Of a stretch of DNA of 64,000 bases, positions 24,342-30,014 are shown one piece after another. The notes under the pieces are model-generated. The model saw nothing but the letters and a program-made list of their open reading frames with translations. It had not been told where the DNA came from and searched no databases. Every line of letters starts with the position of its first letter. Position 1 is the first letter of the stretch. This stretch comes from an uncultured Fidelibacterota bacterium (lineage in GTDB: Bacteria > Fidelibacterota > Marinisomatia > Marinisomatales > UBA1611), in assembly GCA_913040915.1 (NCBI GenBank), contig CAJWHW010000003.1, positions 20,145-84,144 of the forward strand. Reading direction: 5' to 3'. A program made the translations under genes and the position numbers.

Positions 24342-25379
24342 TTATTGATTAATTGAGAGTATTTGTAATCCTTCGCGGGAACAAACAATTAAATTTTCAC
24401 CCCAGAACTCTGTTTTGTAAACATAGCCTATAGGAAATAGGCCTTTCTCAATGGGCTTATTTGGATCGGTAATATCATAAAGTGCAATCCCCTTCGATCC
24501 AAGAGACAATGCAGCAATTCCATCATTTACAGAAATATGATCTACAGTCAAATCCTGTGCAAATCTCACATGTGAATTGCTTGAAGCAGAAAAAACATTA
24601 TAAGGTATATAAGCAGCTCCAACATCATCACATGAGACAAAAACCCCAGCATCTGCTAATACAACTTTCTCTGCATTCCCTTCTGTATCAACTCGACCTA
24701 TGAATTCAGGATCAGCTTCAAGTGAAGCTAATTCATATAATTCCACGCCTAACTGATCTACAGCGAGAGCAATATAATTTTCTCCATTAGAGTCTATTCC
24801 CTGAGGCTTACCTGGTGTATACAGTTCACCGGCACTCCCCTCTGGATATACCGGATTCCAAAAAGAATAACCAAAAACTTCGTAAGGTTCATAAATACTC
24901 CACTTTAGACCATCATCATTATCTGCTGCATACATCACAAAGCGACCCGTATCTATTGGAAAAGAAACAAATTCTCTAGTCCTTGCACTCATGATTGTAT
25001 TAATAAAGCTTAAGTTGGAATCACCTACTGTATAATTAAAAATTTGCACATCTTTATTTGTTTCAGATGAAAAGATCAGATTATTAGTAATATCAATTTC
25101 AATAAGTGAGAGATCATCAAACTCTAAAAAGGATCCCAATTCATAATACCCACTGAAATCACTCAGTTTTATTTTATCTTTTAGATTCCATATTTGTATC
25201 CCTGATTGTCCTGCAGCAATGAAAGCTGTATTGCCGTGAATGGCCACATCTCTTGAAAAGCCTGTTGTATTTAATACTTCAACTTCCGTTACAGACCACA
25301 AATCTTCTACATTAGGTTCAATACACCCAAATAATAATATACTAATAACAGCTATAAAATGTTTTCTAATATCGATCAT
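24342..25379 (-). CDS. LVIVD-repeat-like beta-propeller lipoprotein
   Basis: Lipobox LLFGC; repeats such as AFIAAGQSGIQIWN and LGSKGIALYDITDP. Confidence 0.72.
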   Translation of the reverse strand: MIDIRKHFIAVISILLFGCIEPNVEDLWSVTEVEVLNTTGFSRDVAIHGNTAFIAAGQSGIQIWNLKDKIKLSDFSGYYELGSFLEFDDLSLIEIDITNNLIFSSETNKDVQIFNYTVGDSNLSFINTIMSARTREFVSFPIDTGRFVMYAADNDDGLKWSIYEPYEVFGYSFWNPVYPEGSAGELYTPGKPQGIDSNGENYIALAVDQLGVELYELASLEADPEFIGRVDTEGNAEKVVLADAGVFVSCDDVGAAYIPYNVFSASSNSHVRFAQDLTVDHISVNDGIAALSLGSKGIALYDITDPNKPIEKGLFPIGYVYKTEFWGENLIVCSREGLQILSINQ

Positions 25380-26397
25380 ATACCATATCCCATTCTATTT
25401 TGCACCAAAATTGAATTTGATTAAAACTTTTTAAATCTTTTACCCATTCATATGCTGAATCAGTTGTGCGAATTCTATATCTTCCTGTAAACAAAACTGA
25501 TACTGCTTCAAATATCTCTTTTTTCACCCATACATCATATTTAGAATCTATGTGATCTCTTCCTGCATGGAGCGGGTCATCAGGGTCTTCAGCTCCATAC
25601 TTTCTATATTCTTCACGTATTGAAAAACCAATTTCATCAACAATTGGAATATTTCTATGTATTTTAACTGGCATATACCATTCCATATTGTTATAGGAAC
25701 GATTAAAACTACTTGGTCGCTCAGTTGATAAATGAGATGTACTTCTTGCATGTCCACGGTTGATTTGAAAAGATATAGTTGCTATCCTTTTAATCTTATA
25801 ATTCACCCTTCCTTTGATATAATGAATATCTAAATCAAACTCCGTAAATGGTTTATCATAATATCGTTGAAGATAGCCTGTACTTAGGTTGATCCAGGAC
25901 TCTCTTAATATCTTTTGTGTGATTGTAATACTTTGATTTCTATCGGTAAAATAGCAAGGAGCTAGCAAATCATTGCTAATATCACGGTTAATATAATGTC
26001 TCAGATAAAAACTATTTAAGTGTCTAACAGAATATTTTATATTTTTATAACTTCCCCATTTATAAATCGCATCCAGTCCACCACTCCAATATTTTCTTTC
26101 AGTGTTATTTTGATAATCAGACCAACTGTAAAAACCATTTATGGAAAAATCTTTTCTTCTGGAATGCCAAACAGACTTTTTTCCTGATAATCGTAATTTA
26201 TAAACAAAACTGTCAAAAGTTGATGCACCACCCATGAGAGAATTATCAAGTGCTGCTTCACCAAATTCATATGTAGAAAATCGTAAAACATTATTATCAT
26301 ACCCACCAGTAATCCCGATGGTATACTCAATAGGTGTTTTACCCAGTAAGTATGATGAAATAAAAATAATGTAAAATATATATTTTTGAGAATTCAT
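25366..26397 (-). CDS. Putative outer-membrane beta-barrel protein
   Basis: Signal peptide; GGYDNNV near N-terminus; alternating aromatic/polar strands; aromatic C-terminus; coupled to upstream gene. Confidence 0.6.
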   Translation of the reverse strand: MNSQKYIFYIIFISSYLLGKTPIEYTIGITGGYDNNVLRFSTYEFGEAALDNSLMGGASTFDSFVYKLRLSGKKSVWHSRRKDFSINGFYSWSDYQNNTERKYWSGGLDAIYKWGSYKNIKYSVRHLNSFYLRHYINRDISNDLLAPCYFTDRNQSITITQKILRESWINLSTGYLQRYYDKPFTEFDLDIHYIKGRVNYKIKRIATISFQINRGHARSTSHLSTERPSSFNRSYNNMEWYMPVKIHRNIPIVDEIGFSIREEYRKYGAEDPDDPLHAGRDHIDSKYDVWVKKEIFEAVSVLFTGRYRIRTTDSAYEWVKDLKSFNQIQFWCKIEWDMVYDRY

Positions 26398-28404: not shown

Positions 28405-28840
28405 ACAGTACTCCACCAAATAATAACATCACAGCCAGTTTTACCAAAACAGCAGTCAGAATTACGACTGCAACTGTACGAATAACTCCTTGCCGGTCCA
28501 TCCAATTTGCAATTAGGCCAGGAATTATATTCCCAATTACAGCGACTGAACCTAATTCTTCAGGCATAAAGATAAAATTTCGAGATATATAACCAAAAAA
28601 GAATCCAAGAATTAAGGCCAATACAATTCTACGTTTGCCATATAAAAACATAAATTTCCCCATTACCTGGATAATTGCCCAGACTAATATTGCAACTCCG
28701 AACGTGACTAAAACCTGGATCGGATGGTGAAGATAAAGGGAAATATAACCAGGAACAATAATCCCTCCCGCCGTGACTCCTAGAGTCTCTGACAATACTA
28801 AACTTAATACAATTCCTAGTCCTATGCTGATCTCAGCCAT
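28397..28840 (-). CDS. pgsC: Poly-gamma-glutamate biosynthesis membrane protein PgsC/CapC
   Basis: GVTAGGIIVPGY, LYGKRR and IGNIIPGLIANWMDRQG motifs. Confidence 0.95.
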   Translation of the reverse strand: MAEISIGLGIVLSLVLSETLGVTAGGIIVPGYISLYLHHPIQVLVTFGVAILVWAIIQVMGKFMFLYGKRRIVLALILGFFFGYISRNFIFMPEELGSVAVIGNIIPGLIANWMDRQGVIRTVAVVILTAVLVKLAVMLLFGGVLFE

Positions 28841-30014
28841 GGTATCGATATTCTGCTATTTTATTTAGTAGTTCTTGTCCAGCACCGACCTGATTTCCAA
28901 TTGCATAAATCAATGTATCATGAGGCAAATCAATTAATGTATCTACAACAGTATCAAAATTATCATTCAATCCAATTATTTGTACTTTGGTACCTGGGGA
29001 ATGGTGCAATAATCTTTGGACAGTATTTTCCACCTTATCACCTCTGATAATGAAATGGTCAGGTTTTATCTCTTCAAGTGTCAATTCAATCATTTGGCGC
29101 GTACGAATAGGACGGTCGTCACGGGAATTAAAAAAAACACAGGTGCCTCCTTCAGCGGGATAACGGTCAATAATAAATTTCCATATCTGCAAAGTTGAAA
29201 CGGGGTCATTAGCAGCCATACCATTAATAAATTGAATTCGTTTATCGTCCTTATCAAGGTACCATGCTATCAGAGCTCCTAAATCTGGCTTAACCTTGTG
29301 CATACCAGATAAAGCAATATCTCTGTCAACACCAACTTTAGTACAGACATCCAAGGCTACTGCCACGTTCGCTGGATGTTCCATATAGCTGAAATTGTCT
29401 AGATCTTTTAGCGTAATTTGTGTTTCATCTGACTGAATAAATTCTGTGTTATTAGCTGCGGCAACATTTTTTAGTATTTCAGGTTTTTGCTCTTCTCCTG
29501 TTATAAGTGTTCCGCCTACTGGAATAGTATTGCATAGAGAGTATGCTACATCATCTTCAGTCGGTCCCATTTCATCTAGATGGTCTGGACGTACATTAGT
29601 AATTACAGCTATATGTGATTGAACCATTTGATGCTCAGCTATCCACTGGTATTGAGGCTGTACTGCCATGCATTCCATCACAACTGCATCAGGTTTTTCA
29701 TCTGCGAAATAGCTTAATAGTCTTGTTTGTTCACCTATGGACGGTAGACGCAAGCGATGTATGATTCTGTCCTTTCCTTCAGCGTCAATAACTCTAGGTG
29801 CCGTGCCTGTAGTTTTTGCAAAGGTTCGGATACCTGCTTCACGAAGTCCCGCTGCTATTAACCTTGTTACACTCGATTTTCCCCGGGTTCCATTAACATG
29901 GATTCTTAATGGGATAGCGGCCAAAGACCGCATATGATATTGAAATTCAAGAATTCCCGCGATGCATAAAGCTAATGCCAATGCACCGAGTACAATCAAG
30001 GGAGTGATGGACAT
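28833..30014 (-). CDS. pgsB: Poly-gamma-glutamate synthase PgsB/CapB
   Basis: RIHVNGTRGKSSVTRLIAAGLRE, AKTTGT, ECMAVQP, TNVRPDHLDEMGP and AANDP motifs. Confidence 0.96.
   Translation of the reverse strand: MSITPLIVLGALALALCIAGILEFQYHMRSLAAIPLRIHVNGTRGKSSVTRLIAAGLREAGIRTFAKTTGTAPRVIDAEGKDRIIHRLRLPSIGEQTRLLSYFADEKPDAVVMECMAVQPQYQWIAEHQMVQSHIAVITNVRPDHLDEMGPTEDDVAYSLCNTIPVGGTLITGEEQKPEILKNVAAANNTEFIQSDETQITLKDLDNFSYMEHPANVAVALDVCTKVGVDRDIALSGMHKVKPDLGALIAWYLDKDDKRIQFINGMAANDPVSTLQIWKFIIDRYPAEGGTCVFFNSRDDRPIRTRQMIELTLEEIKPDHFIIRGDKVENTVQRLLHHSPGTKVQIIGLNDNFDTVVDTLIDLPHDTLIYAIGNQVGAGQELLNKIAEYRYHG

Follow-up and report, generated by a model that had tools for sequence, protein, structure and literature searches.

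A conserved envelope gene module beside pgsBCW as a candidate route for poly-gamma-glutamate across the outer membrane of Fidelibacterota and related bacteria

Poly-gamma-glutamate (PGA) is a material of capsules and biofilms and an industrial polymer, and to our knowledge the present understanding of its secretion comes from single-membrane Bacillus, the relevant systems being PgsBCA(E) and CapBCADE. No paper on how a two-membrane cell moves the polymer across its outer membrane was found in a literature search. The present analysis concerns a run of pgs genes and the envelope genes joined to them in a stretch of 64,000 nt (hereafter the window) of contig CAJWHW010000003.1 from an uncultured Fidelibacterota bacterium of the Marinisomatales, UBA1611 (assembly GCA_913040915.1). 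The names under which close homologues are recorded place the organism in the Marinimicrobia (SAR406). As in the Bacillus systems, PgsB and PgsC proteins that pass the equivalog models are encoded here. Unlike those single-membrane systems, the window holds no PgsA/CapA, CapD-type transpeptidase or racemase, a protein of the TIGR04332 family (hereafter PgsW) takes the third place, and four envelope genes are added which would be sensible only with an outer membrane.

The systems for alginate (AlgK/AlgE), poly-N-acetylglucosamine (PNAG; PgaA/PgaB), cellulose (BcsB/BcsC) and Pel (PelB/PelC) share their logic with the window, in that a synthase, a periplasmic handler, a barrel and a lipoprotein are encoded together. 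An analogy with AlgK/AlgE had been drawn in an earlier reading of the window made from the letters alone (hereafter the original prediction); it stands at the level of the shared logic but not at that of the parts. The window has no tetratricopeptide repeat (TPR) scaffold, its basic exported protein of 292 aa (hereafter p292) being predicted as a tandem beta-sandwich; matches in Pfam or NCBIfam to the families of those exporters are absent; and the polymer would be a polyamide and not a polysaccharide. The barrels that export exopolysaccharides have 16-18 strands, AlgE having 18, and an AlgE-type porin identity was rejected for the 343-aa barrel of the window, which is predicted to have 14 strands and matches no alginate-export family at E <= 0.01.

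It had further been proposed that p292 and the 343-aa protein could be the periplasmic carrier and the outer-membrane pore for PGA. The predicted barrel, the linkage to the pgs genes and the conserved charge agree with this proposal, which needs amending in that the accessory unit (hereafter the module) comprises four genes and not two, a lipoprotein and a C25-family protein without the catalytic His being added to the pair, the charge of the barrel lumen is weaker in the Bacteroidota and some pgsBCW clusters of two-membrane bacteria do without the module. On balance we favour, as the probable though far from assured explanation, that p292, the barrel and a 345-aa lipoprotein constitute that part of a PGA system without PgsA which leads, in two-membrane bacteria, from the periplasm to the outer membrane. 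Polymerisation of glutamate would, judging from family membership, be the task of PgsB and PgsC at the inner membrane, where PgsW would be a third membrane subunit; p292, a basic tandem beta-sandwich, would bind the polyanion in the periplasm and pass the polymer to the barrel; and the 14-strand barrel, with a net-positive lumen face, would let the chain through the outer membrane. In the weakest step of the scheme, the lipoprotein, a putative propeller, and a surface protein of the C25 family that lacks the catalytic His may have a part in assembly, capture or anchoring, at the outer membrane or outside it.

PgsB passes TIGR04012 with 414.1 bits against an equivalog cut-off of 222.7 and PgsC passes TIGR04011 with 116.7 bits against 96.45, from which the polymer is most likely PGA. 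PgsW, which adjoins pgsB-pgsC, passes TIGR04332 with 297.1 bits (cut-off 100); it carries hydrophobic stretches at both ends, and profile or sequence searches of the PDB gave no relative for it at E <= 1. Among the control genomes, the PgsB model scored over its cut-off in Bacillus subtilis only, and TIGR04332 matched none of the 14. The original prediction had noted that capA, capD and a glutamate racemase gene are not in the window, and this agrees with whole-genome searches for PGA_cap (PF09587), gamma-glutamyltranspeptidase (PF01019) and glutamate racemase (TIGR00067), all matches of which lie on contigs C14, C48 and C4 and none on the window's own contig (C3). The sole PGA_cap domain (PgsA/CapA-type) of the genome is situated inside a 1618-aa open frame (C14:6712-7593), and one of the two gamma-glutamyltranspeptidase genes is found 17 kb further on the same contig (C14:24491-26032).

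The linkage of the barrel to the pgs genes within the Fidelibacterota was examined in a sample of 201 genomes, searched with the barrel profile and the PgsB model. The barrel profile matched 63 genomes and PgsB scored over its cut-off in 69. Fifty-seven of the 65 barrel places are on the contig of pgsB, on the same strand and 2,108-3,659 nt downstream of it, and the remaining eight are on other contigs of fragmented assemblies. The sole genome with a barrel but without a PgsB match (G100) shows the order pgsW-p292-barrel reaching the contig end. PgsB without a barrel match occurs in nine genomes: two of these (G002, G015) carry the module by a search with hidden Markov models (HMMs), a third (G084) stops inside pgsC, and six have a different, lower-scoring PgsB (five were examined, G064 being left out). 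Twenty loci from many families of the phylum have a common block consisting of the genes for the C25 protein, pgsB, pgsC, pgsW, p292, the barrel, the lipoprotein and a 1019-aa cargo protein. The C25 gene adjoins the pgs block in 19 of the 20 (all but L028) and the cargo gene is beside the block in 18 (not L027 and L028), while in three distant families the C25 gene is displaced to a position after the lipoprotein gene.

Beyond the phylum, 322 clusters of the barrel family were obtained at E <= 0.001 when 1.84 billion representative sequences were searched with a profile, with candidate division KSB1 and Candidatus Stahlbacteria among the source names. A scan of one genome per species with a query alignment of seven sequences yielded 237 barrel relatives confirmed by tblastn; the best 80 of these 237 loci were analysed, and HMMs based on sequences of the Fidelibacterota served to score their gene content. 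These 80 belong to the Bacteroidales, Lentimicrobiaceae, Chitinophagales, Flavobacteriaceae, Ignavibacteria, Melioribacter, Kapabacteria and Chlorobi, and the barrel (80) is accompanied by the lipoprotein in 77, p292 in 75, PgsW in 73, the C25 protein in 68, PgsC in 67 and PgsB in 66, with the misses falling for the most part where a contig stops. Where the barrel contig is free of pgs genes, which is so in three genomes, PgsW is encoded elsewhere in the genome; at locus L056 the 6 kb upstream consist of other DNA, and PgsW of that genome is on another contig. The order is permuted in three loci (C25, barrel, lipoprotein, pgsBCW, p292), with the genes still together. Of 301 Bacteroidota genomes sampled evenly, four have the barrel and eight have PgsW, and in all four PgsW is beside the barrel. 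Across phyla, and in spite of rearrangements of the block, barrel homologues thus keep almost exclusively to the neighbourhood of pgs genes, as the original prediction would have them. The 1019-aa cargo follows the block in the window's phylum only, and in the Bacteroidota its model matches mostly the open reading frame (ORF) of the C25 protein itself.

Two extra genes often follow the lipoprotein gene outside the phylum (in 40 and 36 of 75 Bacteroidota-group loci). The first encodes a membrane protein in which an HGSNAT_cat acyltransferase domain is recognised (47.7 and 58 bits) and the second an unnamed protein of about 300-420 aa, examples being L044:12176-14577 (+) and L083:12030-14078 (+). 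Neither was found in the window's genome by tblastn.

The original description of the 343-aa product as an Arg/Lys/Tyr-rich beta-barrel is borne out by its composition (25 Arg, 23 Lys and 30 Tyr; pI 9.17) and by structure prediction. The AlphaFold2 model, built with an alignment of 27 relatives, is of good confidence (mean pLDDT 83.4, pTM 0.78) and has 14 strands, with turns of 2-7 residues on one side and loops of 6-28 residues on the opposite side. Together with a signal peptide and an aromatic C-terminal residue (Y343, invariant in the family alignment), these are the predicted features of an outer-membrane beta-barrel, and an N-terminal hatch domain is absent, strand 1 following immediately on the signal peptide. 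The protein has no Pfam or NCBIfam match at E <= 0.01 and no PDB sequence relative at E <= 1 in a profile search. CymA and OmpG top both a Foldseek search and an independent all-against-all structural search with the model (CymA, 4d5b_A: Z 22.2, rmsd 3.7, 285 residues aligned, Foldseek E 7e-9; OmpG, 2f1c_X: Z 22.1, rmsd 3.4, 244 aligned, Foldseek E 1e-7). They are followed by the barrels of the Bacteroidota BAM complex (Z about 17), FadL (16), the polysaccharide exporters PgaA (14.8), PelB (14.1) and BcsC (13.9), and the arginine-ladder porin OprP (13.4). CymA and OmpG are monomeric open channels and have 14 strands, as does the barrel model, although the sequence identity is just 7-8%, and they import sugars whereas the barrel of the window is tied to a synthase. 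A barrel homologue in one Bacteroidota genome (G294:C18:30188-31276) has a single in-frame TGA inside the match.

Strand residues were assigned to the lumen or the lipid face by alternating hydrophobicity over the family alignment and not from coordinates. On this basis the lumen face of the window barrel has 21 Lys and Arg against 13 Asp and Glu, a net charge of +8 within a family range of +6 to +14. Lumen-face residues invariant in the 27-sequence family alignment are R306, R308 and R310 of one strand, R265, R133, R178 and K286, and R261 is kept in 93%; among the three Arg of the one strand, only R310 is conserved across all 98 sequences compared. With the 98-sequence alignment, all 20 relatives belonging to the window's phylum have a predicted lumen face of net positive charge (20 of 20; median +9). 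The placement of R306, R308 and R310 on one strand face recalls the phosphate porin OprP, an anion channel with a ladder of basic residues; OprP is trimeric and its strand number is other than 14.

The second protein of the proposed route, p292, has a signal peptide and 51 Lys and Arg against 26 Asp and Glu (pI 9.88), in close agreement with the hand count of about 50 and 25 given earlier. The secreted neighbours had been called strongly acidic, and pI values of 4.18 for the C25 protein, 4.21 for the lipoprotein and 4.40 for the 1019-aa protein bear this out. The basic character of p292 is conserved, its net charge being positive in 85 of 85 homologues (medians of +15 and +22 in two groups; pI 8.3-10.2) and nine alignment columns being at least 80% Lys or Arg; R71, R150, R210 and R224 are among its conserved residues. 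Acidity is likewise preserved in all homologues of the lipoprotein and of the C25 protein. No Pfam or NCBIfam match at E <= 0.01 and no PDB relative at E <= 1 by profile or sequence search were obtained for p292. Its AlphaFold2 model (pLDDT 79.9) consists of the signal peptide and two beta-sandwich domains, at about residues 37-154 and 164-291, the relative orientation of which is uncertain (pTM 0.48). The C-terminal domain resembles the CBM35 domain 2vzp_A (Z 9.5, rmsd 2.8, 109 aligned), the matches of the CBM6/35/36-type fold having Z values of 9.5, 9.3 and 9.1, and also the first carbohydrate-binding domain of the cellulose synthase subunit BcsB (5eiy_B; Z 8.1, 105 aligned), while the N-terminal domain resembles a GOLD or cupin-like sandwich (Z 8.3); these values are barely above the background of 7-8 stated for the tool and therefore name a fold class and not a family.

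Two metagenomic proteins unite the p292 C-terminal domain with a barrel. In P0340 (498 aa) a signal peptide of its own is followed by a C-domain of the p292 type (hhalign probability 96.2%, E 2e-9) and then by the barrel, and in P0039 (447 aa) a segment corresponding to residues 159-283 of p292 (66% identity) is joined directly to the mature start of the barrel, the signal peptide of the latter being lost. These fusions lend modest support to a placement of the C-terminal domain at the periplasmic mouth of the barrel. Predictions of a complex between the barrel (residues 20-343) and p292 (25-292), each with its alignment, scored 0.07 and 0.02 against a mark of 0.32 and speak neither for nor against pairing. 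Long fused relatives of the barrel (602-2000 aa) were not found, which is weak evidence by the tool's own note.

The 345-aa protein has an N-terminal LLFGC lipobox, read from its sequence, and no Pfam or NCBIfam match at E <= 0.01. A homologue from the Melioribacteraceae matches LVIVD with 94.5 bits and PorZ_N_b_propeller weakly, with 24.4 bits against a cut-off of 27, and LVIVD is present in 13-26% of the members of the Atlas clusters of the lipoprotein. It is probably an LVIVD beta-propeller and the third member of the outer-membrane module.

The arrangement of these genes in the window is given in Table 1. Five overlapping genes had been reported, and the overlaps are indeed present, but the run is of six genes, as the 345-aa ORF and the barrel gene have 14 nt in common. 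Counted from pgsB towards the lipoprotein gene, the successive ORF overlaps are 8, 23, 23, 1 and 14 nt, that of pgsC with pgsW being 23 nt, and overlapping start and stop codons suggest coupled translation. The C25 gene is situated 25 nt upstream of the run and the gene of the 1019-aa protein 9 nt downstream.

Table 1. The block of pgs and envelope genes in the window (positions from the first nucleotide of the window)
Feature	Position	Strand	Remarks
C25 gingipain-like protein, 1193 aa	30040..33621	-	propeptide, C25 domain and C-terminal dockerin
pgsB, poly-gamma-glutamate synthase (amide ligase), 393 aa	28833..30014	-	TIGR04012; Mur_ligase_M
pgsC, synthase membrane subunit, 147 aa	28397..28840	-	TIGR04011; Caps_synth_CapC 111.6 bits
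pgsW-type "poly-gamma-glutamate system protein", 388 aa	27253..28419	-	TIGR04332; in the place of PgsA
Basic exported protein (p292), 292 aa	26397..27275	-	two beta-sandwich domains; candidate periplasmic polyanion escort
Outer-membrane beta-barrel, 343 aa	25366..26397	-	14 predicted strands; candidate poly-gamma-glutamate channel
Acidic lipoprotein, 345 aa	24342..25379	-	lipobox; probably an LVIVD beta-propeller
Acidic repeat protein, 1019 aa	21273..24332	-	type IX C-terminal sorting domain

A second type of pgsBCW cluster occurs in the same phyla, with PgsB scores of about 200-257 bits, and was examined in five genomes of the window's phylum and four of the Bacteroidota (L125-L128 and L132-L136; for example L133:7101-13758). 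Five of these loci were scanned for neighbours, which include gamma-glutamyltranspeptidase (in 3 of the 5, and in none of the module-bearing clusters), Asp/Glu racemase, DUF6305 and AstE/AspA-like proteins and type IX cargo with a weak FGase-like domain. Such neighbouring enzymes support the view that these synthases really handle PGA.

Several points weigh against the export route proposed here and were considered together. The clusters of the second type are without p292, the barrel, the lipoprotein and the C25 protein; the module is therefore no general requirement for PGA systems of two-membrane cells but one of the solutions that occur among them. The lumen charge of the barrel was read from a sequence pattern and not from three-dimensional electrostatics, and in the Bacteroidota-group relatives, for which mapping from a distant reference is less reliable, the face is positive in 58 of 78 with a median of +3. 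CymA and OmpG, to which the barrel fold comes closest, are channels that serve in uptake. Conserved Asp, His and Ser residues in the loops of the barrel would also fit an outer-membrane enzyme. Each of the two fusion proteins is a single sequence on a short contig (2.5 and 6.2 kb). We infer that p292 binds the polymer and that the polymer passes through the barrel, and likewise all that is proposed for the lipoprotein and the C25 protein.

The main rival explanation is that the module serves in anchoring or processing at the surface and is not a pore: PGA would leave by another route, the barrel would be an outer-membrane enzyme or anchor, and barrel, lipoprotein and C25-like protein would tether or trim surface PGA, as CapD does in Bacillus anthracis. 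We consider this unlikely, although several observations would suit it. The deepest conservation of the barrel lies in predicted outer loops and involves Asp, His, Ser and Arg, namely Y33, D34, N36 and S41 (YDxN..S), E186 and D188 (FTEFD), and D274, H277 and R280 (DPLHxGR); gamma-glutamyltranspeptidase shows a distribution complementary to that of the module; and the block contains a C25-family protein with an invariant Cys. The best fold matches of the barrel are, on the other side, open channels of 14 strands, whereas the outer-membrane enzymes known to us have 8-12 strands, and the transit of a polyanion would better account for a basic partner in the periplasm.

A further point against this rival comes from the C25 protein, which is without the catalytic His. 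It matches Peptidase_C25 with 153.5 bits (cut-off 23), Propeptide_C25 with 92.3 and Dockerin_1 with 29 in Pfam. On alignment with gingipain RgpB (1cvr_A), Cys457 falls on Cys244 and Tyr429 on His211, these two RgpB residues being the catalytic dyad, with the numbering checked on the alignment. Among 36 members of the cluster-linked C25 family, the column of His211 holds Glu, Tyr, Trp or Gln and in no case His, and the Cys is kept in all 36. From this residue pattern the cluster-linked protein would be a pseudo-peptidase or else an enzyme that works by a changed mechanism. Its C-terminus is a dockerin in the window as against a type IX sorting domain in the Melioribacteraceae homologue (L044).

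A further rival regards the module as a paralogue of the type IX attachment complex (PorU, PorV, PorZ, PorQ) which couples cargo to PGA instead of anionic lipopolysaccharide; this appears very improbable. The roles of PorZ and PorU in type IX attachment are taken here from portions of one source (PMC8545088). The likeness is in the kinds of parts, a C25-family protein (PorU being a C25 sortase), a 14-strand barrel (as PorV and PorQ), a beta-propeller lipoprotein (PorZ having propellers) and adjacent type IX cargo, and all carriers seen are in lineages with type IX sorting domains. It does not extend to membership in the corresponding models. A type IX sortase identity was rejected for the C25 protein, which has no match to NF033707 at E <= 0.01 and lacks the catalytic His; in a Bacteroidota genome (G201), the best match inside the cluster C25 gene reaches 41 bits against a cut-off of 420. 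True PorU genes (853-1336 bits) are encoded elsewhere in 5 of 5 genomes tested. The barrel, for its part, is nearer to CymA and OmpG (Z 22) than to the FadL type (Z 16), and a PorV identity was rejected in that it has no NCBIfam match at E <= 0.01. No PorV chain is among the 50 fold matches listed, and the fold by itself speaks neither for nor against PorV.

Uptake or turnover, in which the barrel would import anionic peptides or PGA fragments and p292 would be a periplasmic binding protein for recycling, is in our estimate just as hard to credit. The nature of the channels closest in fold and the adjacency of a peptidase-family protein would fit such a role, but the tight, overlapping linkage is to synthase genes and not to transporters or hydrolases, the peptidase-family neighbour is without its catalytic His, and neighbours of a PGA-degrading type (gamma-glutamyltranspeptidase, FGase-like and AstE/AspA-like proteins) go with the barrel-free type of cluster. 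That the genes share merely an inherited order and no function is extremely improbable, for although most carriers are in one superphylum and some of the conserved order could be inherited, the block survives two rearrangements (the C25 gene moved in distant classes and the barrel and lipoprotein genes placed before pgsBCW in three loci), the barrel was never found without PgsW in the genome in the sets checked, and two fusion proteins exist.

Beyond the export leg favoured above, the whole block could be a complete trans-envelope polyamide machine, consisting of PgsBCW, a basic escort, a cationic 14-strand channel, a propeller lipoprotein and, at the surface, a His-less, Cys-keeping C25 protein to capture or anchor the chain as it emerges, which would give rise to a tethered polyglutamate coat in type IX bacteria. 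This larger scheme is put forward tentatively, and we hold it to be rather doubtful in its entirety.

The 1019-aa cargo carries the sorting domain as Por_Secre_tail (30 bits, Pfam) and TIGR04183 (31.5 bits) and no other Pfam domain. Many copies of a motif of about 50 residues (W-x-D-x-R ... D-I-[YF]), read from the translation, suggest propeller-like repeats. Beyond it (window 15679-21233, minus strand) are a second C25-like protein of 1061 aa, with a weak match to the PorU model (41 bits against a cut-off of 420), and, between that protein and the cargo, a protein of 777 aa that bears a type IX sorting domain; most of the 20 related loci of the phylum are arranged in this way. Directly upstream of the block and in the same direction (window 33630-46759, minus strand) there is a set resembling type IV pilus and type II secretion genes, with an A24 prepilin peptidase, PilC/GspF, PilB/GspE, a PilQ-type secretin and PilM.

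A scan of positions 18500-35000 for promoters and terminators gave 65 promoter-like and 8 terminator-like sites as compared to 73.7 and 8.7 in shuffled sequences, that is, no excess. Metatranscriptome contigs from three runs of one sample matched as a few short pieces, the two longest of about 150 nt, all within the C25 gene or beside the peptidase gene; the stretch from pgsB to the barrel had no match among them, which has no bearing on its expression.

No published description of the block was found, the literature matches being judged partly by title and abstract. For the Cloacimonadota, pgs genes and, separately, a dockerin-bearing C25 peptidase have been reported, the two not being linked in those portions of the source drawn upon here (PMC8542988).

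Two protein families without a name, p292 and the barrel, have thus become concrete and testable candidates for the export of PGA in two-membrane cells. Their carriers include abundant bacteria of the ocean (SAR406/Marinimicrobia) and many sludge and sediment members of the Bacteroidota and Ignavibacteria. If the proposed route is true, synthase-dependent secretion would be extended to a polyamide with a new family of channels, and the module would provide parts for producing the polymer in Gram-negative hosts.

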